Part shown: one piece after another, positions 24,638 to 62,797 of the stretch
Layout of the letters: each line of letters opens with the position of its first letter
How positions within the stretch are numbered: the first letter of the stretch is position 1
Virus record (IMG/VR): IMGVR_UViG_3300035498_000778
Span: 60,893 to 124,892 of that record
DNA length: 64,000 nt
Strand: one strand, 5' to 3'
Source: a virus
Taxonomy: Duplodnaviria; Caudoviricetes
Translations under genes and position numbers: made by a program
The notes under the pieces: model-generated
Told to the model about the DNA's origin: nothing
What the model saw: only the letters and a program-made list of their open reading frames with translations
The model's database searches: none

Positions 24638-25486
24638 AGTAAAGCTAAACAAGCAGAACAGAATGTAACTAAAACTGTTGATAAATGTGAACAAAATGCT
24701 ACTAAAGCTGTAGAGAATGATAGTACTGATAAAACCACTGATGCTAAAGAAGAAGTTAAAGAACAGCAACAAAAAGCAGCAGAAACTGTACAGGCGGACC
24801 AAGAAGCTATTACTAAATATCGTAATGCACTAGACGTAATGTGGCTGAATATCAATAGATGTATAGGATATGAGAAATCACTGAACGATCCAGATATTAG
24901 TGAAAAGGAGAAGAAACATATTAAGGAAGAGCAATGGGTCAATTATAAATTGTTTAAAAAAGAAGAGACTGCGGCTCAAAATTTATATGATGAAAATAAT
25001 CCTGTTATGGTAGACTTAAAGAATAAACATCAGCTCTCTGATAAAACAAAATCCCTTATGGATGAAATTAAAAATAGGCACGATAAGGAGTGGGCTGAAG
25101 CTACGTATGCGTCAGAAACCGACATAGATAAACTTAAAACCATATTGGACGACATAGTTAAATTGTGCCCAAGAAGTGAAGAACTTTTCTATGCGAAGAG
25201 AGTACCGGATATTAGTGAATCTGATGAGAAACGCCTTCAAAACGAAGAAGATCAGATAAATAAGAAAATCGCTGAATTAGTATCTAGTGCTAAAGAAATA
25301 TTTAAAAGAGATAATAAAGAGATGGGACGACTTTGTTCAGACTATAATAGAAGCATAAAGGATATTAAAACAGAAATTGATAGCAAGTATAAACAAAAAT
25401 ATGGTTCAACATTAAAACCTGCTCCTTCCAACTTTGCTGCTAAAATGCATAGGGCATACCGATATTCATTAAAGGATCCAGAATAA
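24179..25486 (+). CDS. Cassette family member C
   Basis: Constant region plus C-terminus distantly similar to member D (SLNDPDISE / AQNLYDENNP). Confidence 0.85.
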   Translation: MDNIILENMYFEHNISSLTDKYIIECYEESYMCESVLDSIKTFFSNLKEKIKDIFNKIISKITGKSKENTNKLNEIEDKIKDNPKLGLVKVQIADPQKVEAEIDKQKKEYLNNKNKEKGKFKVDKKKVITVATVTVSLAAAVVLLKKGIIKLPSKAKQAEQNVTKTVDKCEQNATKAVENDSTDKTTDAKEEVKEQQQKAAETVQADQEAITKYRNALDVMWLNINRCIGYEKSLNDPDISEKEKKHIKEEQWVNYKLFKKEETAAQNLYDENNPVMVDLKNKHQLSDKTKSLMDEIKNRHDKEWAEATYASETDIDKLKTILDDIVKLCPRSEELFYAKRVPDISESDEKRLQNEEDQINKKIAELVSSAKEIFKRDNKEMGRLCSDYNRSIKDIKTEIDSKYKQKYGSTLKPAPSNFAAKMHRAYRYSLKDPE

Positions 25487-25615
25487 CTTTTTATTATATT
25501 AATAACATTTATATTAAGTAAACCATATGGTTTACTTAATATATTTTTAATTATATATTATAGACATGGAAGTATATAAACATATAGACCATAATATGGA
25601 GGTAATATAATATGG
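25483..25615 (+). repeat. 133-bp perfect inverted repeat, left copy (palindrome/terminator + early promoter + RBS + ATG)
   Basis: Base-for-base reverse complement of 62663-62795; contains a 34-bp perfect palindrome at 25510-25543. Confidence 0.95.
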
Positions 25616-26898
25616 CTAAGAAGAAGAAAACGTACATCGAACGATTAAACTGGGACGCAGAGTATATCAGAGATGTAATGTCAGGTGAAGGATTTAAAAT
25701 AACAGAACCAGCATCTGTTACTGTGGATAGTGGAAAGGAAAAGACCTTGTATGGTTTATACTCACCACTCTATGGTACAGACTACTCAGATGAACAGTCT
25801 TTCGTTGAAAGATACCATTGTGATTGTGGCTACTTTACAGGTAAAGCTTTCGAGGGCGAAGTGTGTCCTAAGTGCAATACTAAGGTTACTTATAAGGATA
25901 TAAATATTAAGTTTACTGGATGGATATCATTTGGTAGACATAAATTATTAAATCCTTATTGGTACAATGTACTTGACAAAGCACTGGGAACTGAATCTCT
26001 TAAAGGACCTGATGGTAAGTCCGTTGGTGGTAGAGTTAACATACTAAAGACTATTATTAACTCAAAACAGATGGTAGATATTAATGGTCAGACTGCTAGG
26101 TATGACGCTGATGCGATGAATGAGAAAGTATCACATCCATATGTAGGTATAGGTATGACGGAGTTGTATAATAGGTTTGATGAAGTACTACGCTATTTCT
26201 ATGACAAGAAACAAAACTCCAGACCTAAGATTAAGATGATAAAGGATGAAATACAAAAAGTATGGTGTACTAAGATTCCTATTTATAGTACATTCATGCG
26301 TCCAATGTCATCTACATCAGAGAACCTATACTACACACAAATGGACAAACAACTATCTCCTCTATTCACAATATCATTAAAGATACAAGATGCAGAGGAT
26401 ATAGAAGTTGACAACATGTTAACGCGTGCTCAAGAACGTCTTAATCAATACTGGGATATCAACTTCAGTTTGATTAATGGTAAGGAAGGTTGGATTAGAC
26501 AACAGATTGTAGGCGGTAGTTTAAATAACACCTCACGTAATGTTATTATACCTGACCCTACCTTACGTGAAAATGAACTTGCGTTATCATATCACACATT
26601 CATCGAATTATTTAAGTTCCAGATTATTGCATCACTACGTGATTACGGTGGTATGAGTTTAGCTGATGCTGACAAGCGCTGGAATGAAGCATACTACAAA
26701 TTCGACCCATTAGTATACGAAACTATGAATCAGATTATCAAGGAGAAGGAACCTTGTGTAATCATTAACAGAAACCCCACGTTAAACTATTACAGTATTT
26801 TACTGATGAAAATCAAACGCGTAAAACCCGACTTTAGTGATTATACGCTTTCGGTTCCCATAAGCATACTCGTGGGGCTTAACGCTGATTTTGATGGT
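25612..26898 (+). CDS. Non-virion RNA polymerase beta' N-half, exon 1
   Basis: Zn ribbon CDCG..CPKC, GKEGWIRQQIVGG, SRNVIIPDP, NRNPTL, LNADFDG; early motif upstream. Confidence 0.9.
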
Positions 26899-28677
26899 CC
26901 AAATGCTTAATTCATGATGCATGTATTGATTGAAATGTAAAATGGACGAACAATACAGTAAAAAGATAGGAATTAAGCGAGCAAGTTTTTGCCATCACTA
27001 AACCCTTTAAATTGCTGGAAGGACTTTATAACATATTGCTACAACGTGATTAGAAATGATGACCGTGAATGCTCTAAAAAGTATATGTTTTAGTCAATCA
27101 GCAGCCCGAATATTGAGATCTCAATTTATAATGATAACTTGCCACTCTAAATTTTATCTTTTAAAATATTCTAAGGAGGATTTAAAAATGAAAGAAATAT
27201 TTAAAGATGTGGTAGGTTATGAAGGAAAATATAAAGTATCCAATATGGGTTATGTTATATCTTCAAATGGAAAAATTGTTAAACCGTTTGCTGATAGAAA
27301 AGGATACTTAAGATGTTCTTTACACAACCCAAATACTATAAAAACCATTCATCGAATAGTTGCTACAGCATTTATACCTAATCCAGATAATAAGCCTGAA
27401 ATTAATCACAAAGATTGTAATACTGCTAATAATCGTGCAGATAATCTTGAATGGATGACTAGTAAAGAAAATAGCAATTACCGTGACAGTTTAGGTCACA
27501 ACAATCGTGTAAATGCTATTGAAGCGCATAGTTGTCCATGTGCTATTTATGACTTAGAAGGTAATTTGTTGTATTTATTTAAAAGTCATAAAGAGGCTGC
27601 AGTCTTACTAGATTTTGATGCCACTTACATTGGTCAAGCGTGCAAAGGTGTCAAAGCTACTTACAAGAACTTTATCTGGAGAGATGTTGATTATTGTAAA
27701 CCGTCTGAAGTATCAGATTATATTCAAAAAATGCATCTTGAAGATGGGTTGGATAAGGTAATGCAGAATCGACCATCTAAAGAACAGGAATGTGTTCAAT
27801 TATCAATGGATGATGTGGAACTAGCAAGATATAGCTCGTGTTCAGAAGCCGCAAGAGAATGTAAGTTAAGTGGTACATCTATAGCAAGAGTATGTAGAGG
27901 AGAACGTAATTCATATGCTGGTTTTAAATGGAAATACTCAGGTAATAGTAATAATGTGAAAAGTGTCAAATATGACATTACTAAGTATGTAGCTCGTTTG
28001 GACTCTTCATATAATATAGACAAAGTATACACCACTTGCAAAGAAGCTGCTGAAAAAAATAATATAAATCAATCATCTTTAAGCTCTGCGTGTAGAGGAG
28101 AATACTCAATGTGCGGAGGATATAGATGGAGATACGTTACTGCTGACGAACTATTGAACACTGGTTTACAGATACCTAATGATAATAGGGCATCATCAAA
28201 ACCATGTGCACAATACGATCCAGATACGAACGAACTGATTGATGTATATGTATCTTGTGTAGACGCAGGCAAAAGTGTTGGAGCAACTGGATGTAACATC
28301 TCAATGGCATGTAATGGTCAAATAAGCAAATCGCATGGATACAGATGGGAATATATAGATATGGATACCTATTATAAATTGAAGAAACAAGATTAAGGTT
28401 CATCGACTATCGAAACCAAAATACCAGTAGGAGAATATTTGGTATCTCCGAAAATGACTGTGAAGTCATTTGGTAAAATACGGAGCGTTGTGAAACGCAC
28501 TTAAGGAATTAGAGTACAGCCAAGCGGTGTGGTTGTGTGTAATAAGCACGTAATGCCACTTAAATGGAAATGTTGGGCACTATCCAAATAGTGAAGATAT
28601 AGTCACACCTTCTAGTGGAAGCTAGAGAAGTTCATAAGAGAACTGCGTGAGCGTAGCGAACTTGCGTGAAGATAGTG
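26899..28677 (+). mobile_element. Group I intron (IA-like) in RNAP beta' catalytic motif
   Basis: Exon ends in U and intron ends in G. IGS GCCATCA (26991) pairs with exon TGATGGT via G.U. Core elements P AAATTGCTGGAA, Q AATCAGCAG, R TCATCGACTAT, S GAAGATATAGTC. Splicing restores NADFDGD. Confidence 0.92.
27188..28396 (+). CDS. Intron-encoded HNH homing endonuclease (NUMOD4-HNH plus four NUMOD1-like repeats)
   Basis: KDVVGYEGKYKVSNMG; HRIVATAFIPNP..INHKD.NTANNRADNLEW...EN; four S..EAA...I..AC.G....G..W repeats; AAGGAGG RBS. Confidence 0.9.
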   Translation: MKEIFKDVVGYEGKYKVSNMGYVISSNGKIVKPFADRKGYLRCSLHNPNTIKTIHRIVATAFIPNPDNKPEINHKDCNTANNRADNLEWMTSKENSNYRDSLGHNNRVNAIEAHSCPCAIYDLEGNLLYLFKSHKEAAVLLDFDATYIGQACKGVKATYKNFIWRDVDYCKPSEVSDYIQKMHLEDGLDKVMQNRPSKEQECVQLSMDDVELARYSSCSEAARECKLSGTSIARVCRGERNSYAGFKWKYSGNSNNVKSVKYDITKYVARLDSSYNIDKVYTTCKEAAEKNNINQSSLSSACRGEYSMCGGYRWRYVTADELLNTGLQIPNDNRASSKPCAQYDPDTNELIDVYVSCVDAGKSVGATGCNISMACNGQISKSHGYRWEYIDMDTYYKLKKQD

Positions 28678-28848
28678 GATATTTTAAACATGATTGCACT
28701 AGTGGACGACTATGACAAACATTTATTCAGACGTTATGACCCACATACACGTATGATGATTAGTCGTGATACTGGTTTGCTAAATAAGGACTACGCAATA
28801 GCTAAGTCACAAATGATAGACCTATATTATTTCTGCACAATGGAATAA
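28678..28848 (+). CDS. Non-virion RNA polymerase beta' N-half, exon 2
   Basis: Begins DILNMIAL, completing NADFDG-D; DP..MMISR.TG; spliced product 485 aa. Confidence 0.88.
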   Translation, partial: DILNMIALVDDYDKHLFRRYDPHTRMMISRDTGLLNKDYAIAKSQMIDLYYFCTME

Positions 28849-28944
28849 CAAAAAGTATAGTTAAACAATATAGTAAAAATTTATGAGAAGAAGTTTTATA
28901 GACTTCTTCTCATATGTGAAATAAAATTAATGGAGGAATTTGTT

Positions 28945-29142
28945 ATGAAAGGATTAAGAGTTCTTGTAAATGTAAACAGTAATATTCTGTTCACCGAGGA
29001 TGAATATGACAACTGGAGTTATGATGGTACCTGCCTTATGATTGAAAAGGATGGCGGTTTGGTCGCACTTTACACCGTCAATAACATAATTGGCGCACTT
29101 AAGTGGGACGATGATGATACCAATAACAATAATGAATCATAA
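28945..29142 (+). CDS. Small hypothetical protein
   Basis: GGAGG RBS, late motif at 28864, terminator at about 29153-29185. Confidence 0.6.
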   Translation: MKGLRVLVNVNSNILFTEDEYDNWSYDGTCLMIEKDGGLVALYTVNNIIGALKWDDDDTNNNNES

Positions 29143-29196
29143 TACATATATAAATGAAGACTGACAATGTCAGTCTTCATTTTTTTATTTTTATAA

Positions 29197-32532: not shown

Positions 32533-32553
32533 AATTTATCACCTCATATTAAT

Positions 32554-34068: not shown

Positions 34069-34208
34069 TTGGCTCAACTCCTTTTCTTTTTTAATGTTAT
34101 AAGAATGTTTCTTGTTGAAACTTTCCACTTATAACCATAAAAATAATTATATATTATATTTGTGTAAGAAAAACAAACATAATAAAAGATACTCGGAGGT
34201 ATAAAATT

Positions 34209-35018: not shown

Positions 35019-35053
35019 AATAAAAAGAGAGCATTGAGCTCTCTTTTTTCTTG

Positions 35054-41076: not shown

Positions 41077-43872
41077 TTATACACTTATGAGTGATTCATC
41101 AAAGTTGATATTACCAAGTTTGATAGTGCTATCATGGAATCCCTTCATATTTAAGTTGGTTAGTGTTTGACCAAGGCATGATATAGTCAAGCCAACATTT
41201 CTAACACCCATTTTATAACTTAGATTACCAGCACAAACGTTACATATACCATTAGAGCTTGTACATGATAATGGTGTTCTCATCTTAACGTGTTTATCTA
41301 CATACTTTCCAATATTCTCGTGTGTTAATTCGACAATCTTATCACCTTCGACTATATACCTATAAACAAATCCTGATATATTATCCTTGGTTAATAATAT
41401 GTCAATCGGATGCTTACTGTGACAGTCTGTTCCTTTCTCGGCAGTACGGTCGGTCTGCATCATTTGAACTAGCTCTTTCTGTAAGTATCCACTTTCAGAT
41501 GTTCCTACAGCTTTAGTATATGCACCAGCAAGAGCAGAGTTATTGAGTGCTGGAATATCCTTTTTATCAAATCCGTCCAAGTAAGATGATGTTATGATGT
41601 CATACTTACCGGTTATGTTATTTGGTACCGCACCACGCATTATATTATTACACTTATAGTTGTTACCAAACGATCCTCTTGCACCAGACTTAAATAGATC
41701 CATTGCGGGGTCATCTGCTATCTCTTTTTCTGCTATCTCTAGTAGTTCATTCTCTATAGCAACGACAGTGTTGATGTCTCCCTTCTCTAATTTCTCCTTA
41801 TTTTTTTCTAATAACTCTTCACGTCTTTTCTTTACTTTATCAGGCGTTCTCATCATAATAGTTGAATATGATGTTGTTAGTAGGGCGTTCAATTTTAATC
41901 CCAAATAATCTCGGGCATCTATATATTGCATCATCTGTTCAGTCTTAACTTTATCATCTAGTAGGGCAGCGCAAATCTCATCTTGCATCTTACCTTGTAA
42001 TTTATTTACTACAGGCCTGTTCACATAAGGTATTACTGAATAAAGACCGGTTCGTTCTAATAGATATCTGTTATAAAGCAATCGTCCTATAGTTGTTTCA
42101 ATCTCGCCGTCTACGTATTTATACATACTCTTATTAAGCTTCACCTTATCGTATGTGTTGTATTTTGATTTAACTTCTTTTCCATTTATAAATTTATCAC
42201 CGAATAAGTCTGAGAAAAATTTATAGTCCATTTGGTCTAATGGAGTATCTAATATTTGTTTCACCACTACTGGTGGAACTGTTTTCGCATCTTTGCGTGG
42301 ATCCTTAGTCAAAACATATATGGTTTGTGCAGCTTCAGATTCTATCGTACGTTTATTTCTCGAGGCAGTGGAGTCAAGAATATTCTGTTTACTATATAGG
42401 AATTTCTCTGCCTCTGCATTAGCTTCCTGAGACCATATTATTTTTATAGTGATCTGGTCGCCGTCATAATCGGCTACCATGTCTGAACAATATGAATTTG
42501 AAAACGATACAGTATCAATAAATATACCCGACATATCATCATGAGATATATTTTGATCTACTACGGGGAACATTGGGTATACCTTACCATTTAAAGTAAA
42601 CTTTTCATGTTTTATTGTTGATACTACTGTGATCTTGTTAAAGAATGTACCCATATCAGGATATCTTGTAAGCATTACATATTTATTTTCAACTACATCA
42701 CAAGCTATTATATACAATAGATCTGTCCACGTAATTTCTTTAATATAATCAGCACCTTGATGATCACTATCTTTATATCCTCGTTTACCTGTCAGATACA
42801 AGGATGTGTTGTCACGAATCTTACCATTAGAATCTTTCGATTTGAATTGAACTTTATTAAACCTTGAAGCTGGGTTTTTGATATAGCTATCCAACACCTT
42901 ATCAAAATATTGATCCGTAAACGTGGATTCTGGGTCTATAGGATACATAAGTTTCGAAATAGTTTCACCATTCCCATCTCTTGTCATCACAGGTATACCT
43001 GAATCTACTTTAGAGAATACTATACGTTCAAACCATAACTTTAATTCTCTTATTATATATGGGTAGCATAAATCTAGAACTTGAGTAAGAGGAACCTGTG
43101 TATGCGTAAAGTTAATTGGCATATCTTCTAGCCTATCAGCTTGGTATGATGGAGCTGTAATGACAGTACGAACAGAGTAATCTATAGTTTTACCCATCAA
43201 TGACTTACGTATCATACCATTCTTTTTTTGTAGTTTTAACTTAAAGTAATCATATATATCTACCAAGGTTTGTTGTATGGTGTAATCTGTACTATAGAAT
43301 GCAAAGTCGAACATTAATGAATTACTAAGCATATCAGTCGATCTTAGTAATTTTATGTATAAACTATTTAAGTCACCACTCTTAGTACCTGATGATTCAT
43401 CAAGTACATCTCTATAAAAGGCTGGTATAACAAGCATCTTGGTTATCCATATGGTTTTCTTCGGATAATTTTGGATAAGATCTACACGTTCTTTACGCAT
43501 AGCGGTGTTTCCTTTATCCCATTTTATATTGTCCCACACTTTATATAGCCATTCAATACCGGTATTACCCTTCTCATCTTCGACGAGAGCTCCATCTACT
43601 AGTTTAAACTTTTTAGTACCTCTTACTATGTCATCAATAACTCTAAATAATCTTCTCATAGATTTATAAACATGAGGATGTAAAAAAGGCTTCTTAAGGT
43701 CTATGTATGCAAATGTCTCTTTACGAGATTTTGTATTATAACCAAATATTTCGTTAGATATTAAACCTTGTGGGTGAGGTCCACTATTTCTGTCAAATAG
43801 AATAGGAGAAGTGATTTCTTGTAGATTATTAATCTTTACATATTCATCTACATTAATCAACTCAATCTTCAT
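41077..43872 (-). CDS. RNA polymerase beta' subunit, single-chain (likely virion RNAP)
   Basis: GLISNEIFG, FAYIDL..PFLHP, KNGMIRKSLMGKTIDYS, RYP, ADYDGD, SGARG, GYLQK, MRTPLSC..GIC..CAG, LNMKGFH; late motif at 43906. Confidence 0.9.
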   Translation of the reverse strand: MKIELINVDEYVKINNLQEITSPILFDRNSGPHPQGLISNEIFGYNTKSRKETFAYIDLKKPFLHPHVYKSMRRLFRVIDDIVRGTKKFKLVDGALVEDEKGNTGIEWLYKVWDNIKWDKGNTAMRKERVDLIQNYPKKTIWITKMLVIPAFYRDVLDESSGTKSGDLNSLYIKLLRSTDMLSNSLMFDFAFYSTDYTIQQTLVDIYDYFKLKLQKKNGMIRKSLMGKTIDYSVRTVITAPSYQADRLEDMPINFTHTQVPLTQVLDLCYPYIIRELKLWFERIVFSKVDSGIPVMTRDGNGETISKLMYPIDPESTFTDQYFDKVLDSYIKNPASRFNKVQFKSKDSNGKIRDNTSLYLTGKRGYKDSDHQGADYIKEITWTDLLYIIACDVVENKYVMLTRYPDMGTFFNKITVVSTIKHEKFTLNGKVYPMFPVVDQNISHDDMSGIFIDTVSFSNSYCSDMVADYDGDQITIKIIWSQEANAEAEKFLYSKQNILDSTASRNKRTIESEAAQTIYVLTKDPRKDAKTVPPVVVKQILDTPLDQMDYKFFSDLFGDKFINGKEVKSKYNTYDKVKLNKSMYKYVDGEIETTIGRLLYNRYLLERTGLYSVIPYVNRPVVNKLQGKMQDEICAALLDDKVKTEQMMQYIDARDYLGLKLNALLTTSYSTIMMRTPDKVKKRREELLEKNKEKLEKGDINTVVAIENELLEIAEKEIADDPAMDLFKSGARGSFGNNYKCNNIMRGAVPNNITGKYDIITSSYLDGFDKKDIPALNNSALAGAYTKAVGTSESGYLQKELVQMMQTDRTAEKGTDCHSKHPIDILLTKDNISGFVYRYIVEGDKIVELTHENIGKYVDKHVKMRTPLSCTSSNGICNVCAGNLSYKMGVRNVGLTISCLGQTLTNLNMKGFHDSTIKLGNINFDESLISV

Positions 43873-47854: not shown

Positions 47855-47881
47855 AATGACCACTCCTTTTTATGTTTTATG

Positions 47882-48223: not shown

Positions 48224-48260
48224 TGTGAATCAACCCTTTCATTTATAATATAATATAAAA

Positions 48261-48809: not shown

Positions 48810-48830
48810 AATTTGAACCTCCTAAAATTA

Positions 48831-49139
48831 TTAAGATAAACTATCCTGAACATCGAGGATTTCATCAATAGTAGCCCCATCTTCATTATTGAGAATTCTA
48901 TCAATTTCAATCTCTTCAGTTTCAGGAGTTGATTCTGGAATTGTCTCTATCAACTTTTCAATATCAACGTCTTCTTCACCAGATTCATAAACTGGGTCAT
49001 TAATAGTATCTAGTATCATATCATTGACATTCATGTCATGAATCATTGAACTTAATACTACCCTGTCCCTCTCCATCCTAGCTCTATCTCTAGCAATGGA
49101 AGTTAAACCTTTAATCATAACGCGATCATCCTTTCTCAT
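48831..49139 (-). CDS. Small acidic late protein (putative head protein)
   Basis: Late motif at 49150; VYES site. Confidence 0.6.
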   Translation of the reverse strand: MRKDDRVMIKGLTSIARDRARMERDRVVLSSMIHDMNVNDMILDTINDPVYESGEEDVDIEKLIETIPESTPETEEIEIDRILNNEDGATIDEILDVQDSLS

Positions 49140-49238
49140 TATAGTTATTTACAGTATTGTTTAAAATTATATCTATAAATTACCAAGCGATAAAATAATA
49201 TTGAATACACTGAATTCAGTGTATTCAATATAAATAAT

Positions 49239-50135: not shown

Positions 50136-50236
50136 TCCTTTCTTATTTTAAACGATTTGTTATTATTTTAATGTTTAAGGGGGTAAATAGATACCCGCTT
50201 TTCATACGGGTATCTATTGTGTCATTCTTGTGTAAG

Positions 50237-51823: not shown

Positions 51824-51881
51824 TTTTGAACCACCTCTATATTATTAATTATAGTTATTTAATTGACTGTTTATTATACGC

Positions 51882-53042: not shown

Positions 53043-53047
53043 TTATA

Positions 53048-53626
53048 TCACTCCTTTATGATTTTATTATATTTTCTTTGGTTATAATTGCTGTCATAAC
53101 CATCCATATATTCTATGTCTATTTCAACCCTAGGCTTAATAGAATAAAACTTCTTGGACGTTCCTTCTATGATGAGAGCATCATCATAAATTAGAATATC
53201 ATTCACCATATCAGAATACGCTTTTCCTAAATTGTCCCAATCAGGTTTCGATATAGGGCGTATCTCACCAAGTTCGGAATCGTATTTCTCTTGCTTAGTC
53301 ATAGATTTCGGGGTTGGTAAATATGATCTTACTTCAAATTTACAAGCAGTTGTTATAAAAGGTAAATCATGTTTTTTAGCATAATCTTCAAAAAAACGTT
53401 TATTATCCTTCGCACCTTTGACATAAAAAACACCAAATCTTCCAAGTTTAGGTCTTGGTGTAGGCTTAGGCTCTATATAAAAAACTAATGATAATTTATT
53501 CCATTTATGAGTATTATCTTTGTCAGTAATTATCTTTCTCGAACTGCTTAATATTTGAAGTCTATATTCAATATCTTCAGGAATATCTCCGTAAGTGCGT
53601 TGATATTCTTCATCTAATTTCATCAA
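53048..53626 (-). CDS. rusA: RusA-like Holliday junction resolvase
   Basis: PKPTPRPK, KPDWDNLGK..D, YDDALI, KFYS..PRVEI. Confidence 0.85.
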   Translation of the reverse strand: MMKLDEEYQRTYGDIPEDIEYRLQILSSSRKIITDKDNTHKWNKLSLVFYIEPKPTPRPKLGRFGVFYVKGAKDNKRFFEDYAKKHDLPFITTACKFEVRSYLPTPKSMTKQEKYDSELGEIRPISKPDWDNLGKAYSDMVNDILIYDDALIIEGTSKKFYSIKPRVEIDIEYMDGYDSNYNQRKYNKIIKE

Positions 53627-53700
53627 TTTTTCACCTCATCATTTTTTAATAACTTTAAATTATTGTTTCAGCGTTAAGAGATTAAGAGCTTTATGGGCTC

Positions 53701-55179: not shown

Positions 55180-55265
55180 ATTAATTATCACTCCTTTACG
55201 TGATTGTTTTATAGAATTATAAAATGCAACTAGACCGATAATTTCGGTCTAGTTAATTCATTAAA

Positions 55266-55898
55266 TTACTCATGTATAACTGATATCCTAGCAGAATATA
55301 TGTCGTTCCATTTGTTTTCACCAGCTTCTTTATCATATTGTAGTTTAATCCATGCTATAGCTGCTAGAAATTTACCCCTGAGTGATAGAAGATTCTCAGG
55401 AACTTTATTCTTTGAGCCTGCTAAGATTTCCAATACAGCTTGCTGGTAATTACATATTATGTTAATTATAACTCCATGAAGCATTTCGCTCATAGGAAAC
55501 ACTCGATAATTATTTCGTACACTAGTATCATCCAATGATTTGACAATGTCATCATATTCAGATGTATAACTTGGAACACGCACTCCATTCATGTTACAAT
55601 ATAAAACAGCACTTTGTATCCATTTCACAAGTAGCATATTTCGTTCTTTTTCTATAACTCCAGTATCTCCATCGATTATACACAAAAGTTTTTGGAATAG
55701 TGAGGATTCATCAGCTACATATTGAGGTATATTCATTACTAATCCCTTAAACTCTTCAGGCGCTCTTTCATACATACAATTATATCCCTTCAATACATTG
55801 CATGTTGACTGTAATATACCCAGTAGCACTTGATTGGCATCTATATCATTCACTACTACAACTTCATTTTTTTCATCATTTAATATTTCTTCGTTCAT
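55266..55898 (-). CDS. Hypothetical protein
   Basis: ORF with RBS and late motif at 55925. Confidence 0.6.
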   Translation of the reverse strand: MNEEILNDEKNEVVVVNDIDANQVLLGILQSTCNVLKGYNCMYERAPEEFKGLVMNIPQYVADESSLFQKLLCIIDGDTGVIEKERNMLLVKWIQSAVLYCNMNGVRVPSYTSEYDDIVKSLDDTSVRNNYRVFPMSEMLHGVIINIICNYQQAVLEILAGSKNKVPENLLSLRGKFLAAIAWIKLQYDKEAGENKWNDIYSARISVIHE

Positions 55899-55953
55899 AT
55901 AATTTTCCTCCAATTAATATTTTTTACTAATCTGTTTAATAGCTAATAAAAAA

Positions 55954-57204
55954 CTATTTTTGTTTTTTGAACGTTATTACCGAAGCCAAAGTGAAATCTG
56001 ACGTACTATCATGAACAAATTTATGTACAGCAGACGCAGTCTTATATACTCCATTGTACTTATCATTTAGTGTGAGATCTTCAAATACTATATTGATATT
56101 TTTATTAGGAGTTACTGCTGCTATATCATAATCCGAAACTGCGAAATTTAATTGACATTCCTGACCCTTTACCTGTTGCGAATATGTATCTACTCTATAA
56201 TCATTCATGGTATCATTGTAAATATACGAATACTTACCATCTCCTCTTGTCTCGTAATTACTTTTGAAAGTGTCTAGCTTATTATTAGATGCATCTATAA
56301 TCGTAGCATCAGTACCGGTAATAACATCTAATGCTACTATATTATTAATGAACTGAACTGTGGCATTAGACGCAGCAATGTAATTTGTACTCTCGCCTTC
56401 TCTAATGATTGATCCGTTCTGTGAAGTATCATCACTACCCTTTTCAGAAATTAAGATGGTTGTGTCATGATATTCATTATCCGCTACGGCGTCGCTATAA
56501 GGTCCATATCTTAACATGTAACTCCTATCTAGTCCAAAATAAAGAAGCATACCAGTTTTATAAAATCCATAATACGCATCAAGATACTTTATGTTTTCAT
56601 ATATACTTTGTGGTGGTAATATAATAGTATCATAGATATTGCGATTATCTACCGGTGACATAAGTATCTTTTTACAATTAGCTTGATATAAGAGATATGA
56701 AACTAAAGTGTTGATGTCAATATTGTTTATTATCATATTTGAAGATTTGAGTAAGCCGTTCACTATATCACAGTCAAACAAATATATGTCCATGGAGTTA
56801 GTCATTTTATCCAACTTCTTTGTATCCGATTTATTACCTGACATACGTTTTATTTTTCTCTGAAGGTCTTCAGGAGTTTCATCAATGTATATACCAAAAG
56901 TCTTATTAAATACATCACTTACAAGACTCTTGTGTTTAGTACCAACACGGCAGTGATATTTCTGTAACCTTATCTGAAACAAGATATCATTCTTATCTTT
57001 TATTATCTTGAAGATAGTATTGTACTCCATTATCAAACTTAGTCTAAATATGGGCAGCCTACTGTTTTCATAATAGTCTTCGACTGATATCCCTGTTATG
57101 TTATTAGAATCAATATTCTCAACGCTGCCATCTGAGTAAAGTATATTCATGTAGACTGTGTATCTATATTGCGTAACGATATCTCCTGACTGTATTAAAC
57201 TCAT
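55954..57204 (-). CDS. Putative baseplate/tail structural protein
   Basis: SPVDN..IYD.IILPP...I.YL...YGFY..G resembles jumbo-phage baseplate hub-like proteins; late motif at 57238. Confidence 0.5.
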   Translation of the reverse strand: MSLIQSGDIVTQYRYTVYMNILYSDGSVENIDSNNITGISVEDYYENSRLPIFRLSLIMEYNTIFKIIKDKNDILFQIRLQKYHCRVGTKHKSLVSDVFNKTFGIYIDETPEDLQRKIKRMSGNKSDTKKLDKMTNSMDIYLFDCDIVNGLLKSSNMIINNIDINTLVSYLLYQANCKKILMSPVDNRNIYDTIILPPQSIYENIKYLDAYYGFYKTGMLLYFGLDRSYMLRYGPYSDAVADNEYHDTTILISEKGSDDTSQNGSIIREGESTNYIAASNATVQFINNIVALDVITGTDATIIDASNNKLDTFKSNYETRGDGKYSYIYNDTMNDYRVDTYSQQVKGQECQLNFAVSDYDIAAVTPNKNINIVFEDLTLNDKYNGVYKTASAVHKFVHDSTSDFTLASVITFKKQK

Positions 57205-57368
57205 ATAATCACCCCATAAAATTAATCTATTTATCGTTATATTACTGTTAATCGGTCAAAATGATAAACCAAAAAACAGTTATATATTATAATTGTGTAT
57301 TTACTTATATCGTGGATATACCCATTCATAGATACAGTAAAAAATTATTTTTTTAGGAGGATACTCAT

Positions 57369-57752
57369 ATGAGTACTATTAAGACTATCAATGAATTAAG
57401 AAACGATAAGGACTTTATCACACTAGTAGAGACCATACGTGGTCATAAGTCAGATTGGGAATACCTAATAGAAGATGGGAATGAATATGCTGACGAAAAC
57501 ATATATCTTAAAGTCAGAAATACATCTATCAAAACCATGATGGACCTTACTGACGTCTTATATGAAATGGTTCGCAGTACTAATTCATCTACTAAGCTAG
57601 ACGTGATGCGATTAAAGTTAACACTTGATACAATCAGATGTTGCATCATTAACGGATTATCGATGAATAGTATGGGTGGTTCATATTACCCAGAATTATT
57701 TGCTGGACTAGATAGTAACATCGATGAGTTACTATATGAATTACAACACTAA
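57369..57752 (+). CDS. Early hypothetical protein (stand-alone unit)
   Basis: Early motif at 57281, AGGAGG RBS, terminator at about 57759-57790. Confidence 0.7.
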   Translation: MSTIKTINELRNDKDFITLVETIRGHKSDWEYLIEDGNEYADENIYLKVRNTSIKTMMDLTDVLYEMVRSTNSSTKLDVMRLKLTLDTIRCCIINGLSMNSMGGSYYPELFAGLDSNIDELLYELQH

Positions 57753-57788
57753 AAAAGTAAATGAGGAAGCGTTGCTTCCTCATTTTTT

Positions 57789-57965
57789 TTATATATTTCT
57801 AAGCGTAACTCCATCTTCACTGGGTGATATTATTTCAAAAATATCAGTTGTTGGTTTATCTTCTTGTTCAGTATACTTTGTTATCATGTCCTTAACATTG
57901 TCAAAAGAAATATCATTACTTTCAGATATTCGACGTATGTAGTTCTCATTTAATAGATTCTCCAT
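57789..57965 (-). CDS. Small hypothetical protein
   Basis: GGAGTGG RBS; downstream of 58009-59385. Confidence 0.45.
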   Translation of the reverse strand: MENLLNENYIRRISESNDISFDNVKDMITKYTEQEDKPTTDIFEIISPSEDGVTLRNI

Positions 57966-58008
57966 AATATACCACTCCATTTCGTTATCTACACATTTCT
58001 TTTTTAAT

Positions 58009-59385
58009 TTACAATTGACCTGTTATTCGCTTACATTCGTCAACAGCATATTTTAATGAGTCGTTTATATCTAATCCTTTCTCTCTAGCCTCATCAAATT
58101 TACTATCGAATAAACGAGTACCGGTCATCTCGTCTTCTTTCAGATCGACTATGACGTTAAGTTCGTCATCTTTGAGAGTCGAAGTATCCTGCTCTTCTGT
58201 GTCATCATCATCTTCATCGAACTCTTCCGGATAATATCTGTCATAATCGCATTCATAGTCTTCTTCATCAATGCCATATTGATTATTAACGAAGTCAACT
58301 ATATCATCTTTTATATGATCCCAGTTTTTTGTCATCATTGCTTCTATGTTATCGATTATTGCCTCTAGATTTTTTCTAGTAGCACTAGATAATGAAAAAT
58401 CCCATTCTTTTTTAGTGAAGGATAGTCTATTCATATCTTTATAACTACCAAACAAGATGTATGCAGTATTATTCTCTATCTTTACTGACATACTAGCAAT
58501 AGGCTGGGGAATACAATATCCTTTTGTGCAAGCTAAAATATTTAACACTATGCAATCCGATAGATGTGTATCCCCAGAGCATGACACGTCAGCCAAATAC
58601 ACAGAATACATAAATGCTTCTCCTATATCTTTAGTGTTCATTATATCAACAAACTCTTTTAAAAGGTTAGCCTCTTTTAAGTGTCTCCTTGCTTCAATCG
58701 CAATATTATCATCTGCATGGTTTACTAGTAAACAGTTTAAAGCTAATATTATATGATCAATGAATAGCTCTATATCTCTAGTTTTACACACAACAGTATT
58801 AGCATCAATATCGCATAACGCATCTCTTAGCTCATCAAAATTATCCATGTCAAATATCTTATCTACGCAACATACGAGTCTATCACTATAATATTCCTCA
58901 GCGAATATCAACTTATCACACAGACCTTTGGTATTAAGTATTTGATTTACCCTTTCTTCAAGATCATTAATAGGCTTTTTAAAACGTATTAAGTATCTTT
59001 TTGTTTTACCAGATTCAGATATATTGTCATTCAAATGCGCATATTCAATGCCATAATAAACTATGTATGTTATTAACCATGTTAAACCTACATCTTTTAT
59101 TAGGTTCTTTTTTTCTTCTAAATCATCTGAATTATATAGAACGAAAAAAATAGCATTTATTATCAATTCATCTTCAACAGGATCCGCGGGAATAACATTT
59201 AGATCTAATCCATCCAAAATCTCCCTAGACTTAGAGTCTTTATCTTTTGGCATACTGCTGAAAAACTTTGCCCTATTATGCTCCATTATAGAATTTGCCG
59301 TGTACGTTGAAAATGTATACGCGAGACGTTTAATCTCTTTATCTCGTATATAACGCATGAACTTTGTATCCATTTCATTTTCCAT
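58009..59385 (-). CDS. Hypothetical acidic protein
   Basis: 458-aa ORF, AAGGAGG RBS, late motif at 59426. Confidence 0.65.
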   Translation of the reverse strand: MENEMDTKFMRYIRDKEIKRLAYTFSTYTANSIMEHNRAKFFSSMPKDKDSKSREILDGLDLNVIPADPVEDELIINAIFFVLYNSDDLEEKKNLIKDVGLTWLITYIVYYGIEYAHLNDNISESGKTKRYLIRFKKPINDLEERVNQILNTKGLCDKLIFAEEYYSDRLVCCVDKIFDMDNFDELRDALCDIDANTVVCKTRDIELFIDHIILALNCLLVNHADDNIAIEARRHLKEANLLKEFVDIMNTKDIGEAFMYSVYLADVSCSGDTHLSDCIVLNILACTKGYCIPQPIASMSVKIENNTAYILFGSYKDMNRLSFTKKEWDFSLSSATRKNLEAIIDNIEAMMTKNWDHIKDDIVDFVNNQYGIDEEDYECDYDRYYPEEFDEDDDDTEEQDTSTLKDDELNVIVDLKEDEMTGTRLFDSKFDEAREKGLDINDSLKYAVDECKRITGQL

Positions 59386-59487
59386 ACATTTATCCTCCTT
59401 ATGATTAAAAATATATAACTTGATATAATTAACTGTTAAACAAAAATAAAAAAATAAAGAGACAATGCGCCTCTTTATTTAAATTTC

Positions 59488-59673
59488 TTATTCAAATCTT
59501 TCATCGTAGTCATCATACCCATAAAAGGTATTATCATCCTTTCCTTGACTAGCCATGATACGCTTCTGCTTATAGCTTTTGATATGTATAGTATTCCAGT
59601 CCCAATCACGCTTTGTATTTCCTTCTCGTGTATTAAGTGTACTCTCAACTACGTATTCGCTACAATCATTCAT
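59488..59673 (-). CDS. Small hypothetical protein
   Basis: GGAGG RBS; terminator-like hairpin downstream. Confidence 0.5.
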   Translation of the reverse strand: MNDCSEYVVESTLNTREGNTKRDWDWNTIHIKSYKQKRIMASQGKDDNTFYGYDDYDERFE

Positions 59674-59761
59674 TGTAATCATCCTCCATTATTTGGTATA
59701 AAATTATAATATTAATTTTAAACCGAGAAACTGGAGTCTCTCGGTTTATATTCCAATTAAA

Positions 59762-61816
59762 TTAATCAATTGTTGTATATTCTTTTTTGTAAAATTCCCT
59801 CAATGATTCGGTGCTGACCTGCTCACTGAATAGAATATCATGAATGCTTTCTCCGTCTCTGTTACCAGAGTTAGGAGATAATAATTGATTCTTCAAGTTT
59901 TGATATATCAGACCTGATAAAACTGATTTATTAGTTGTTAGTGCACGGTTTAATGGTATTAATTCATATGGTACTTCACCATCGAACTTGAAGTTTGGAT
60001 ACTCATTTGTACCCGGAACACGCATTAGTGCGGTAACGACTACTTCACCTGCTATAGCAGATGCAGCTATTTTTGCGTCAATTATCAACTTTGTATATGT
60101 CTGAGCCATGTCGTCTGCAGAGGCCGGAATACCATCCTTAGACGTTAACTCCATAATCTCATATAATGGTTTAGTCAACTCATTATTAGCAATATCTACA
60201 CGCATAACATAGTTTTCATCAGCTATATCTATGAGATTTACAACTCCTTCATTCTCTTTTATGAGTTTGACGAGTTCCTTAGATAAGTACAAATGTTTCT
60301 CATTCAATACTGAGATTGTAACTTCATCTGTACCATCATGTCTACGAAATGCAAACGGTTGATTGATATATGTGTTTAAATCGTTGGTGTCATCGTATAT
60401 GTCTTCATGACATAACATTGACTCAGGTATATACAATTCATAATCATTTACGTCCAACTCAACATTGTCACGAACTCTTATCTCACCACCAGCGAAAGAG
60501 AATATATCATAAAACTTATCACTAAATTCTATTTTTTCTGAGCGTGTGGTCAATAAGTGCTTTGCTGAAAGTATGTTCTGATTAACAACCTTAGTTATTT
60601 CTTCAGTCAAATAGATAGAAATACCACCAGCAATATCTACGTTCAATCTAGCATTAGCACCAAAACATTTATGACAAAAAGTTCGTCTACCGTGTATAGG
60701 CCTACATGCACAGAAAATAGGTGACCTAAAATAAACTGTTTTACCAATCAAATAGTCATCTTCATTTGAGTGGACACATTGTAAATTGTCATGGTCATTT
60801 GGGTCAAGAGTGTAATATCTACCTTCGTATTTCTTTAAGAAAGCTTTATCACTAATATATATCTTAAGATAGTGATGCGTACCACAGTTCTTAACTCTAT
60901 CTGACATTCTTACATTTGTACTTATAATAGTCAAGGACTTAGCATAATATCCAGCTTTACCCATAACTTTCTTATTCATAATGTATGACTTACGAGCTCC
61001 AGTGGCATCTAGGTACATATTACTTGGGGTTCTCATACCTCTAACAAGCTGATTACCATTGATAACCTTTGGAACTGTACAACCATTTATATCAGGTTTC
61101 ATACCACCATTAGATGTAAACTCTTGAAGCTGCTGAGCTTTTATTCCTTGACCAGACCTTAAGAATACTCCTATAGCATTGTTTTTCATTGACTTGAATA
61201 TTGATACTTCTTCAGCTACGGTTTTATCCATCTCTGCCTCGATATCAGCAGGCTGGTCAGCATCACTATATTCTGCTACAAATATCTCTTTAAGTCTATC
61301 TGAAGCATCATACGCTTCTATGAAAGTTTCTGTTGATAGAGTCAAATTCATGATTTGGCTGAAGTTGAGTGATATGGAACGTAGATATGTTAGAACTTCA
61401 GAAACTGCTAGGTTCATATCACTACGCTTAACTCCACAGTATAGCATAAGCTTGATTATATCATCTATATAATCATGGACATTCGCTATATTATTACAGT
61501 CAAAGATATACTTCTCTGACAAAAGATTATTCTCATATAATAATGTGAATGGATACCATAGAAATAGATTAATCAAGAAGTGTCTTAACTGGAGTTCGTG
61601 AACCTCAATATCAATAGAATGAAACTTAAACTTCACCATATAATTGCGTAGGCTGCGGTGTTCTATGCAGCCCTTTACTATGTCATATATATTCTCTACA
61701 AAGTTAATGTACTTCTCTTGGTCATCTAAATAATCATAGATACAGTACATAGCTTGTAATTCATCCTCTAACTCTGCTATTGTGCTTATTGCCTTAACAT
61801 CGTTATTGATTTTCAT
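59762..61816 (-). CDS. Non-virion RNA polymerase beta' C-half
   Basis: GARKS..MNK..MGKAGYYAK (bridge helix), NCGT, GRYY, YFRSPIFC...CHKCFG, NQNILSAKHLLTT (trigger loop). Confidence 0.88.
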   Translation of the reverse strand: MKINNDVKAISTIAELEDELQAMYCIYDYLDDQEKYINFVENIYDIVKGCIEHRSLRNYMVKFKFHSIDIEVHELQLRHFLINLFLWYPFTLLYENNLLSEKYIFDCNNIANVHDYIDDIIKLMLYCGVKRSDMNLAVSEVLTYLRSISLNFSQIMNLTLSTETFIEAYDASDRLKEIFVAEYSDADQPADIEAEMDKTVAEEVSIFKSMKNNAIGVFLRSGQGIKAQQLQEFTSNGGMKPDINGCTVPKVINGNQLVRGMRTPSNMYLDATGARKSYIMNKKVMGKAGYYAKSLTIISTNVRMSDRVKNCGTHHYLKIYISDKAFLKKYEGRYYTLDPNDHDNLQCVHSNEDDYLIGKTVYFRSPIFCACRPIHGRRTFCHKCFGANARLNVDIAGGISIYLTEEITKVVNQNILSAKHLLTTRSEKIEFSDKFYDIFSFAGGEIRVRDNVELDVNDYELYIPESMLCHEDIYDDTNDLNTYINQPFAFRRHDGTDEVTISVLNEKHLYLSKELVKLIKENEGVVNLIDIADENYVMRVDIANNELTKPLYEIMELTSKDGIPASADDMAQTYTKLIIDAKIAASAIAGEVVVTALMRVPGTNEYPNFKFDGEVPYELIPLNRALTTNKSVLSGLIYQNLKNQLLSPNSGNRDGESIHDILFSEQVSTESLREFYKKEYTTID

Positions 61817-61836
61817 TTCGATTTCCTCCTAAATAA

Positions 61837-62292
61837 TCATTTTAAGTCATATAGCTTCTTAAACAACTTCAGCGTATCAATAGTGATTTCATCAGATTTT
61901 ATCTGCTGTGCTAATGCTCTTAATGCCGACCTAGTGTATCCTGAGATACACATTCCATAAGTATATATTACCGTTTCTGCATTATCAGCAAAAGCACTTT
62001 CCCATTGATTTATCAGACTATCCATGTACAAGCATTCTGATATAGTGGCAACGACTTCATGTGTCCTGCCTTTTTTATCGACCAACTCTAGAGTAGTCAT
62101 TTCCTCATGTCTGTTGTTTTCGAAGTATAACTCGTATTCAGTATAGCGTGATCTGGATAATACAAATTTTTCTTTATAATACTTATTCATATCCCTTGTT
62201 CGCTCGAATTCTTTCGCAAGAGCTTTGTTATCAGTACATGCATACAGCATGTCATCATATGTTGAAAAGTATTGATATATCTTCATACTCAT
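61837..62292 (-). CDS. Hypothetical protein
   Basis: Translationally coupled to 62289-62666; LYACTDNK.LAKEFERTRDM. Confidence 0.7.
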   Translation of the reverse strand: MSMKIYQYFSTYDDMLYACTDNKALAKEFERTRDMNKYYKEKFVLSRSRYTEYELYFENNRHEEMTTLELVDKKGRTHEVVATISECLYMDSLINQWESAFADNAETVIYTYGMCISGYTRSALRALAQQIKSDEITIDTLKLFKKLYDLK

Positions 62293-62666
62293 ATCTCCAC
62301 GTCGAACAATCTAACATTATCTTTATTAGATTTCTTGGGCTTCTTGTATTTTATACCATTTTCCGCACACGCTTTTGCTAGTTTGTCTGTGAATTCCTTT
62401 TCCCTGCGTTCATAAGCACTCTCAGTTTCATATGAAATTGGCTCGAGATAATCCTCGATATACTCAATCTTAGGAGAGAAGTTTTTATTAAAAACAGACT
62501 TGTCATGATTGGCCAATTTCTCAATCAGCTCATCTAGTTTCTCTAAGTTTGCTATATCCTCTTCCGCAGTTAACTCAGGTCTGGTCATTATACTTCTGGC
62601 TAAATTTCTAAAAATGTATAGCCTATAGTGTAAATCATCCATTCCCTTTTTAGAACCAAATACCAT
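62289..62666 (-). CDS. Hypothetical protein, first gene after the right inverted repeat
   Basis: RBS and ATG are supplied by the repeat. Confidence 0.7.
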   Translation of the reverse strand: MVFGSKKGMDDLHYRLYIFRNLARSIMTRPELTAEEDIANLEKLDELIEKLANHDKSVFNKNFSPKIEYIEDYLEPISYETESAYERREKEFTDKLAKACAENGIKYKKPKKSNKDNVRLFDVEI

Positions 62667-62795
62667 ATTATATTACCTCCATATTATGGTCTATATGTTT
62701 ATATACTTCCATGTCTATAATATATAATTAAAAATATATTAAGTAAACCATATGGTTTACTTAATATAAATGTTATTAATATAATAAAAAGTTAT
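62663..62795 (-). repeat. 133-bp perfect inverted repeat, right copy
   Basis: Exact reverse complement of 25483-25615. Confidence 0.95.
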
Positions 62796-62797
62796 AC

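Follow-up and report, generated by a model that had tools for sequence, protein, structure and literature searches.

A perfect inverted repeat that heads both halves of a split RNA polymerase beta' gene in an AR9-like phage is a predicted portable regulatory cassette and a probable site of recombination

A stretch of 64,000 nucleotides (hereafter, the window) from the 124.9-kb Caudoviricetes record IMGVR_UViG_3300035498_000778 carries a 133-bp inverted repeat, which is a complete, portable intergenic regulatory cassette spanning the interval between the upstream gene's stop codon and the start codon of the next gene. Positions 25483-25615 are the reverse complement of positions 62663-62795 at 133 of 133 bases (100%), and 37,047 bases lie between the arms. 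The left copy heads the N-terminal half of the split non-virion RNA polymerase (nvRNAP) beta' subunit, and the right copy stands in front of ORF125-ORF151-beta'-C. Recombination between the two sites is probable, since one public assembly joins their flanks crosswise. As the best explanation, we consider it likely that a portable cassette pair was recently made identical and forms a substrate for recombination. The coordinates of all features are given in Table 1.

Table 1. Coordinates of the repeat pair, its regulatory elements and the adjoining genes in the window
Feature	Position	Strand	Remarks
Left repeat copy	25483-25615	+	Stop codon of gene C to ATG+1 of beta'-N; also in L010 and L006
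Right repeat copy	62663-62795	-	2 nt past the gene D stop codon to ATG+1 of ORF125; also in L005 and L006
Perfect palindrome, 34 nt	25510-25543	+	15-bp stem, 4-nt loop; predicted intrinsic terminator for gene C
Mirror palindrome	62735-62768	-	Predicted intrinsic terminator for gene D
Early-promoter core TATATATTAT + 6 nt + G	25552-25568	+	Predicted +1 at 25568
Mirror early-promoter core	62726-62710	-	Predicted +1 at 62710
GGAGG Shine-Dalgarno	25598-25602	+	9 nt ahead of ATG; read from sequence
Mirror GGAGG	62676-62680	-	Precedes ATG at 62666-62664
nvRNAP beta'-N, exon 1	25612-26900	+	Ends ...NADFDG; phrog_2987, 4.5e-63
Group I intron	26901-28677	+	Approximate boundaries; carries HNH/NUMOD homing-endonuclease ORF 27056-28396
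nvRNAP beta'-N, exon 2	28678-28848	+	First residue D completes NADFDGD
ORF125	62289-62666	-	First gene of the right-hand operon; no family match
ORF151	61837-62292	-	149 aa from an alternative start; 4-nt overlap with ORF125
nvRNAP beta'-C	59762-61816	-	phrog_3015, 6.4e-45; 20-nt gap from ORF151
Gene A	21193-22362	+	Constant region in outer imperfect inverted repeats with D
Gene B	22470 (probable start)-23888	+	Constant region in outer imperfect inverted repeats with D
Gene C	24179-25486	+	435 aa; ~170-aa constant N-terminal part, one predicted TM helix, variable charged tail
Gene D	62798-64000	-	Cut by window/contig end; 426 aa in L005

The order of elements in the cassette is stop codon, terminator hairpin with T-run, early promoter, 44-nt leader, GGAGG, and ATG. 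The left copy starts one base ahead of the TAA of gene C and the right copy two bases beyond the TAA of gene D, which agrees with the original observation that each copy begins at the end of a cassette-family gene. The ATG of the left copy occupies 25612-25614, and the last base of the repeat is the next G. The palindrome, promoter, GGAGG, and terminus one base past the ATG, all claimed beforehand, were found in their places. In the alignment, homology stopped abruptly at both edges; addition of three bases (136 nt) lowered the identity to 99%. A TTTTT run follows the left palindrome on the + strand only. This palindrome scored as terminator-like, with 0.1 such sites expected in shuffles, and the hairpin was present in both the MFE and the centroid fold (z = -3.4, 156-nt region). 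Promoter and terminator activity of the cassette are predictions from sequence.

The early (virion RNA polymerase) promoter consensus of phage AR9 was experimentally defined as AAATATATATTAT-(6N)-G+1 (PMC5312081). The string AATTATATATTAT-AGACAT-G at 25549-25568 fits this consensus and its G+1 spacing; the core TATATATTAT itself lies at 25552-25561 and is followed by AGACA-TG. Across the 124.9-kb record, 24 instances of the core were counted, most of them in intergenic regions upstream of genes and several with an adjacent hairpin; the early-promoter consensus of the studied genome is TTATATATTATAATTGTG. No relevant AR9-type late promoter (AACA-N6-TA/G) was found near either repeat copy. Judged by its motif, the cassette promoter is a general AR9-type early promoter and a predicted target of the virion RNA polymerase. 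Once injected, this polymerase would read the cassette's promoter, and both beta' halves would belong to the early regulon with identical initiation signals.

The left copy had been said to head beta'-N, and it does; the gene, however, is not a simple ORF, and the copy heads exon 1 of an intron-containing gene. The intron splits the NADFDGD catalytic loop between NADFDG and the final D. In the intron-less relatives P0008 and P0009, the C-terminal 56 residues align to exon 2 at 62-66% identity. The intron ORF has HNH_3, NUMOD1/4, and I-HmuI-like domains, and the Rfam Intron_gpI model matched 28477-28627 (26.5 bits, E 7.7e-4, under the gathering score). The best AR9 match of beta'-N was g270 (non-virion RNAP beta' N-terminus) and the best PDB matches were 7S00/7S01 chain d. 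For beta'-C, the best AR9 match was g154 (non-virion RNAP beta' C-terminus) and the only PDB match was 7S00 chain D (1.5e-36). Both proteins are closest to the nvRNAP and not to the vRNAP subunit, as expected of a split phiKZ/AR9-like nvRNAP beta'. A separate unsplit beta' is encoded at 41077-43872 (phrog_2986 and phrog_2962). At the right copy, the three-gene operon ending in beta'-C was confirmed as ORF125, ORF151, and beta'-C, and homologues of ORF125 precede beta'-C in relatives (L019 ORF103). A search for RNAP beta subunits gave no PF00562 match, and two unannotated ORFs of ~1050 aa had no PDB match. Neither ORF125 nor the cassette family matched a Pfam or PHROG family, and their atlas neighbours were under the reliability range. 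Single-protein queries with beta'-N and beta'-C returned no related loci from viral_contigs.

Each repeat copy lies downstream of one member of a paralogous gene family (A-D) of putative membrane proteins. The true start of gene D is 78 nt past base 64000, according to contig L005. The constant regions of the family are inverted relative to each other at the two loci, as had been claimed, with 88-93% identity over 438-473 nt. DNA identity between C and D was 89% in the constant region, undetectable in the tails, and 99-100% in the repeat. The head of gene D is closest to that of gene B (92-93%), and its tail is related to that of C at the protein level only; gene D is a mosaic in which a head resembling B is followed by a tail related to C and by the cassette that also lies downstream of C. 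The phiKZ internal head protein family (PF12699) was considered for A-D and rejected, with no Pfam match at E <= 0.01; the only link of A-D to phiKZ_IP was a language-model neighbour at 0.76, below the reliability range of the tool.

In the relatives with 76% (L014/L019) and 61% (L021/L020) identity, the upstream regions of beta'-N and of the beta'-C operon had no sequence in common. The patch is recent, since these relatives lack a shared repeat and the neighbouring gene tails lack DNA similarity. On this comparison of sequences, the perfect identity stems from recent copying or is a gene-conversion patch in this lineage; it is not a relic of an old gene duplication. The suggestion of recent duplication or homogenisation is supported by the relatives and by the C/D identity, which passes from 89% to none and then to 100%. 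The copies would have become identical in this lineage through an exchange between the two loci, either ectopic homologous recombination or gene conversion; conversion as the mechanism is what we infer. Local alignments to the upstream regions of relatives, which bear on the direction of copying, matched in the promoter core only, with one match of 23/27 nt (hairpin end, T-run, and promoter) at the beta'-C operon of L020. The order of a cassette gene followed by beta'-N was found in all relatives examined. For the 76% relative, three Logan contigs begin at one point, 69 nt upstream of the ORF125 homologue, which hints at a repeat boundary there too, with a partner that is not near beta'-N.

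Selection, rather than recombination, might keep the copies identical if the same promoter, leader, and RBS equalised the stoichiometric co-expression of the beta' halves. The two copies do head two halves of one subunit, and the identity covers exactly the expression signals. We nevertheless find this improbable. The 76% and 61% relatives, as well as AR9, use unrelated upstream regions with only the promoter core in common. The first 27 nt, the loop, and the spacer positions are identical here as well, which selection on expression would not call for. Equal initiation would not mean equal protein output, because beta'-C is third in its operon and the beta'-N transcript must be spliced. The genome has a second, unrelated cassette pair, and this one precedes unrelated cargo genes. 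Moreover, both AR9 beta' halves have early promoters and their upstream regions have only a 15-nt core in common, so that the halves can be co-regulated with no extended identity. The view that promoter identity serves to match the two halves loses force accordingly, the core being that of a general early promoter, and base-by-base selection need not be invoked for the perfect identity. Recent copying or conversion between the loci remains our preferred reading.

The existence of both copies was borne out by the 133/133 alignment and by recurrence in independent assemblies. Whole copies with their flanks were found again in JGI 3300035499 (L005 and L010) and JGI 3300035497 (L006). The contigs L007-L009 start inside the right copy, and several further contigs break within the repeat. 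One copy could in principle be an assembly artefact, as the right copy is only 1.2 kb from the contig end and this end falls inside a repeated gene family. All four flank-repeat boundaries, however, recur in different samples and pipelines (JGI contigs L005, L006, L010, L011, and L008; Logan contigs L007, L009, and L012), and a chimera, which had been named as a possible refutation, is extremely unlikely. An exact 40-mer of the repeat had 0 matches in viral_contigs and metagenome_contigs, a count that is no measure of rarity, and a 9-kb megablast against GenBank phages gave no match.

The repeat pair and the constant regions that flank it on the outside (88-93% identical) would be a substrate for general homologous recombination. 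Such recombination could turn the 37-kb arc round or carry cassette tails from one locus to the other, leaving all genes undamaged. The geometry agrees with what was predicted: a crossover in the intergenic repeat would invert 25616-62662 and break no gene, and each operon would have the same promoter, leader, and RBS as before.

Two recombinant junctions had been predicted, and one of them was found. In the 2.3-kb contig L006 (JGI 3300035497), window positions 24504-25615 are joined to 62795-61434, with 100% identity on both sides. This is the expected junction of gene C, the repeat, and ORF125 (the 62666 ORF), and L006 is the only crosswise contig. The reciprocal junction, in which gene D is joined through the repeat to beta'-N, was absent among the contigs searched. 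A search with beta'-N for such contigs yielded, as N-terminal fragments, only an 81% fragment from a relative; the cluster look-up gave an uninformative C-terminal fragment alone, and no further junction variants came up for C, D, or the lysin. Three other independent junction-spanning contigs are parental, as is the record itself; both contigs of sample 3300035499 are parental. The neighbouring contigs in the source sample of L006 are fragmented.

L006 could result from inversion, from a non-reciprocal transfer that placed the C tail at the D locus, or from a mis-join across the 133-nt repeat. The last possibility belongs to a static duplication, in which a single recent copying event was followed by no exchange and L006 was mis-joined across a repeat slightly longer than the assembly k. 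The first 127 bases of the record recur unchanged at 172-298, which suggests a probable k of 127, just below 133; a repeat longer than k is resolved by assemblers from read pairs, and they can err. The parental state of three of the four independent junction-spanning contigs and of the record, the missing reciprocal junction, the many contigs that break in or at the repeat, and the start of L011, from the same sample as L006, inside the repeat all suit a static duplication. A paired-end join, on the other hand, needs read pairs linking the C tail to ORF125, which are expected to be absent from a purely parental population; such a population should favour the join of C to beta'-N, and the mosaic gene D shows past exchanges between the loci. 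We regard a static duplication as somewhat unlikely and lean towards L006 reflecting real molecules; the larger part of this leaning goes to inversion and the smaller to tail conversion. An active flip-flop, with a measurable share of genomes inverting the 37-kb arc in each infection, two isomers packaged, and tails shuffled between the loci, seems doubtful to us. If it did occur, an AR9-like phage would have a recombinase-free means of diversifying a membrane-anchored family, built out of ordinary expression signals.

No serine or tyrosine recombinase was detected in the 124.9-kb record (no Resolvase PF00239 or Phage_integrase PF00589 match; controls positive). A RusA-like resolvase and an SbcC-like protein are encoded. 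A RecA/UvsX-type recombinase was not found in the record, so that strand exchange would need a host function or a phage protein that escaped recognition. The record lacks 3.5 kb, which hold a GH25 lysin and three genes without a Pfam hit on record. A programmed Gin/Cin/Hin-type segment, flipped by a site-specific recombinase, might be suspected, as inverted repeats bound the segment and variable C-terminal gene tails adjoin them, in superficial likeness to the Mu G and P1 C segments. This alternative is very improbable given the lack of recombinase domains. Furthermore, the repeat consists of 133 nt of ordinary expression signals and not of a 26-34-bp crossover site, the segment comprises 37 kb of core genes, and inversion would alter nothing in expression, with no switch of gene 3' ends or promoters. 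Repeat-mediated exchange is ordinary recombination and not a dedicated switch.

At the repeat, short-read assemblies from this group of phages can be expected to break or mis-join, and contig orientation there is untrustworthy. The promoter, leader, and terminator of the cassette are compact candidate parts for the study of early transcription by the virion RNA polymerase in an uncultured Gram-positive-type lineage.

A second cassette of 142 nt is present in the same genome as an inverted pair with 97.9% identity (G000 5668-5809 and 43119-43260). With two further copies at 26223-26345 and 77057-77134, it amounts to four copies at 84-98% identity. It resembles the studied cassette in its size of ~140 nt, near-identity, both orientations, and the same early promoter core, and differs in its unrelated leader and in having four copies, versus two at 100%.

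Repeat-mediated flip-flop genome isomers are formed by the L/S segments of HSV-1 and by plastid inverted repeats. They are also described for the Burkholderia jumbo phage Matilda (bioRxiv 10.64898/2026.10.21.760668), where, as here, there are inverted repeats and no dedicated recombinase; intramolecular homologous recombination was proposed for its co-existing isomers. The repeats of Matilda, however, are 1.5 kb and 18 kb long and occupy the genome ends, and PCR and long reads demonstrated the two orientations. The studied pair is internal and spans 133 nt (plus ~0.5 kb at ~90% outside), and the evidence for its recombination is one short contig.

AR9/PBS1 share with the studied phage the promoter consensus and its spacing to G+1 (PMC5312081; KU878088). 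In AR9, g154 and g270 each have a hairpin and an early promoter upstream, as the beta' halves do here; g270 (beta'-N) consists of 2 pieces with the HNH gene g271 between them, and the beta' halves are far apart on opposite strands. The beta' proteins here are only ~26-28% identical to those of AR9, and the match between the two AR9 upstream regions is limited to the 15-nt core.

The closest counterparts in layout are the PeSL (promoter-early stem-loop) cassettes of the T4-type phages RB49/phi1, PST, and nt-1 (PMC2839356, PMC4122927), which consist of a stop codon, a stem-loop, an early promoter, and an SD with start codon (PMC2839356, Fig. 2 legend). The studied cassette is likewise a composite unit in which the upstream stop codon is followed by a terminator stem-loop, an early promoter, and the SD with the start codon. 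Its stem-loop is predicted to be a stable terminator (15-bp stem and T-run). PeSLs occur repeatedly in their genomes beside variable accessory genes, and here too there are many copies in such surroundings, as seen in the 24 cores, the cassette-gene family, and the second cassette family. PeSLs also provide homology for recombination between flanks that are otherwise unrelated; the studied cassette may do likewise, to judge by the one crosswise contig, L006. The AR9-type virion-RNAP early motif, in contrast to the sigma-70 promoters of PeSLs, makes it an analogue and not a member of the sequence family. The studied pair also differs in its inverted arrangement, its 37-kb spacing, and its 100% identity over 133 nt, and it heads essential polymerase genes, whereas PeSLs head ORFans. 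The expected product here is an inversion or tail swap, versus a deletion or mini-circle for PeSLs; inversions are not mentioned in the PeSL paper (PMC2839356). Should the exchange prove real, portable expression cassettes of the PeSL kind would extend beyond T4-type phages and sigma-70 promoters; they would operate also in phages transcribing with their own multisubunit polymerases and could rearrange tens of kb of core genome, beyond swaps of small ORFans.

The sequence at 25483-25615 was identical to the reverse complement of 62663-62795 at 133 of 133 bases, as originally predicted, and 37,047 bases separate the two arms. The length of the repeat alone excludes a chance origin. In alignments, similarity was lost immediately beyond the repeat limits on both sides. 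The inner flanks, beta'-N and ORF125, are unrelated; the outer flanks are the C-terminal tails of the paralogous cassette-family genes C (left) and D (right), between which DNA similarity is undetectable. The T-run found 3' of the 34-nt palindrome on one strand only (+ in the left copy) makes the predicted intrinsic terminator one-directional. The IMG/VR record, of which the window forms the final 64 kb, is 124,892 bases long and has 24 occurrences of the promoter core, mostly in intergenic regions 5' of genes. Their local consensus, TTATATATTATAATTGTG, agrees with the early consensus of Bacillus phage AR9, AAATATATATTAT-(6N)-G+1, which was mapped experimentally; the polymerase that reads it is the injected virion RNAP (PMC5312081). 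With terminator, early promoter, and RBS/ATG in one unit, the 133-nt cassette is predicted to be a full package that ends the previous gene, starts an early transcript, and initiates translation.

Features of the repeat, the genes that it serves, and related elements (window positions unless marked "record")
Feature	Position	Remarks
Stop codon TAA of gene C	repeat positions 2-4	left copy
Perfect palindrome, 34 nt	25510-25543	left copy; 15-bp stem, 4-nt loop
Promoter core TATATATTAT	25552-25561	left copy; then 6 bases, then G at 25568
Leader, 44 nt	from G 25568 to start codon	left copy
GGAGG	25598-25602	left copy
ATG	25612	left copy; last base of repeat is the next G
beta'-N	25612-28848	exon 1, 25612-26910; exon 2, 28678-28848
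HNH/NUMOD homing-endonuclease ORF	27056-28396	3' of exon 1
Group I intron Rfam match	28477-28627	sub-threshold
beta'-C	59762-61816 (-)	
931-aa ORF	41077-43872 (-)	
Upstream modules of cassette-family genes	21094-21187, 22373-22466, 24078-24171	
RusA-like resolvase	53048-53626 (-)	
SbcC-like protein	record 56279-58939 (+)	
Second cassette, copies	record 5668-5809 (-), 43119-43260 (+), 26223-26345 (-); window 16165-16242	

The assignment of the served genes to the two halves of a split non-virion RNA polymerase (nvRNAP) beta' is supported by their best relatives. The ORF behind the left copy matches phrog_2987, with AR9 g270 as the best GenBank relative and 7S00 chain d (AR9 non-virion RNAP) as the best PDB relative; beta'-C matches phrog_3015 and is closest to AR9 g154 and 7S00 chain D. 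The former ORF is only exon 1 of beta'-N. It terminates with NADFDG, within the catalytic NADFDGD, and exon 2 opens with the missing D, at which the 56 C-terminal residues of intron-less relatives begin to align (28678-28845). The interruption is a putative group I intron of ~1.8 kb (sub-threshold Rfam match) carrying the HNH/NUMOD endonuclease. Where relatives lack the HNH gene, their beta'-N is a continuous protein of ~475 aa, and AR9 g270 is interrupted as here, with HNH gene g271. The phage's other beta', of the virion type, appears unsplit, since a single 931-aa ORF has matches to the families of both halves, phrog_2986 (N-terminal) and phrog_2962 (C-terminal). Proteins P0184 and P0199-P0201 of distant relatives (37-39% identity to beta'-C, 1,183-1,192 aa, with an Rpb1_2 domain) indicate a fused nvRNAP-like beta' of ~1,190 aa in some metagenomic phages of the clade.

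The right copy heads the operon ORF125-ORF151-beta'-C, with a 4-nt overlap and then a 20-nt gap; no promoter or terminator motif was found between these genes. Homologues of ORF125 and ORF151 occupy the same position before beta'-C in relatives. The proposal that identical promoters match transcription of the two halves was not upheld. The early promoter class is generic (about two dozen transcription units), beta'-C comes third in its operon, and beta'-N requires splicing. In AR9, each beta' half lies behind a hairpin and an early promoter, and the upstream regions share a 15-nt core only; in close relatives the halves lack extended upstream identity. It follows that the signals are identical as a by-product of copying and are not evidence for a stoichiometry device.

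The contig end of the record is 1.2 kb away from the right copy, which was therefore tested as a possible assembly product. This was ruled out by whole copies with flanks in contigs L010 and L005 (JGI sample 3300035499) and L006 (JGI 3300035497), which come from independent assemblies and represent essentially the same phage at 99.9-100% identity. Five more contigs begin within the repeat, which is what a repeat boundary would be expected to produce. L005 (9.6 kb) overlaps both record ends at 100% identity (4.47 kb, window 59529-64000; 1.6 kb, record 153-1767), and the genome map therefore closes at ~128.3 kb, plus or minus 171-nt tandem-repeat units. Between the ends it adds 3.5 kb carrying four genes, one of them for a GH25 lysin; that the lysin gene adjoins D is also supported by contig L025, which comes from another sample. 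The CheckV completeness estimate for the record is only 52%, and ~128 kb would be unusually small among phages that carry multisubunit RNA polymerases of the phiKZ/AR9 type. Record positions 1-298, inside an acidic tandem-repeat coding region with a 171-nt period, hold an exact 127-base repeat (1-127 = 172-298), which probably reflects either variation in copy number or an end effect of assembly at k=127; L005 is one unit shorter there.

Apart from the record itself, four contigs fully cross a copy. L010 (C-repeat-beta'-N) and L005 (D-repeat-ORF125) have parental junctions. The recombinant junction anticipated from the sequence, C joined to the 62666 ORF, was found in L006 as C-repeat-ORF125 (window 24504-25615 joined to 62795-61434, 0 mismatches on either side). 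L011, from the same sample, starts at repeat position 54 and continues into beta'-N. We lean towards L006 reflecting real recombinant molecules. Inversion of the 37-kb arc is plausible, if short of probable; non-reciprocal replacement of the D tail by the C tail, in which the cassette and the constant region would supply the flanking homology, is less likely. A chimera or assembly mis-join is about as plausible as the inversion: the exact recurrence at the record start suggests k=127, the 133-nt repeat would then be resolved by read pairs, and such resolution can fail where coverage is low, but it normally needs real pairs linking the joined flanks. Any real exchange at the repeat would be general homologous recombination, since the phage encodes neither a serine nor a tyrosine recombinase; it does encode a RusA-like resolvase, a helicase, and an SbcC-like protein. 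A RecA-type protein was looked for in the record and not found. The genome has many perfect palindromes, and the RusA-like Holliday-junction resolvase and the SbcC-like protein are candidates for a role in recombination at these sites.

As to the origin of the identity, the original prediction offered ongoing homogenisation or recent duplication. C and D share 53% amino-acid identity overall; at the DNA level their constant 5' part is 89% identical, the ~700-nt tail has no blastn similarity, and the cassette is 99-100% identical. D is a mosaic, with its head nearest to family member B (92-93%), its tail related only to that of C, and the downstream cassette that of C, a pattern probably left by gene conversion or patchy recombination within the family. 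A single duplication followed by divergence is contradicted by this pattern. The order of cassette-family gene(s) followed by beta'-N is kept in relatives L014/L015, L016-L018, and L021 (beta'-N identity 76%, 63%, and 61%, respectively). In the two relatives with both loci (L014+L019, L021+L020), no similarity between the upstream regions of beta'-N and the beta'-C operon was detectable, in line with a recent origin of the identity, and the L020 operon is preceded by a gene from outside the cassette family. Three Logan contigs of the 76% relative, from three different runs (L019, L035, L036), all start at a 24-nt palindrome exactly 69 nt 5' of the ORF125 homologue, which suggests that this relative, too, has a repeat boundary there. 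In each of the cassette-family genes' own upstream modules, a GGTATATATGTGGTATATACCACATATATACC-type palindrome of 30 nt is combined with a T-run and a conserved leader; the modules differ from the 133-nt cassette and lack a sense-orientation early-promoter core.

The genome also holds a second, unrelated portable promoter-leader cassette in both orientations; its inverted pair (142 nt, 97.9% identity) is likewise ~37 kb apart, and two further copies are 84-89% identical. The layout of the 133-nt cassette fits almost word for word the definition of promoter-early stem-loop (PeSL) cassettes of T4-type phages, which comprise a stop codon, a stem-loop terminator, an early promoter, and SD plus start codon (PMC2839356). 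PeSLs are repeated beside variable genes and act as recombination patches (PMC2839356; PMC4122927). Here, however, the promoter is predicted to be read by another polymerase, and the pair is inverted, 37 kb apart, and serves essential genes. The recombination products described for PeSLs are deletions, replacements, and mini-circles, not inversions (PMC2839356). Repeat-mediated flip-flop isomers were recently shown in the jumbo phage Matilda (bioRxiv 10.64898/2026.10.21.760668), whose repeats, unlike those described here, are terminal and far longer than 133 nt.
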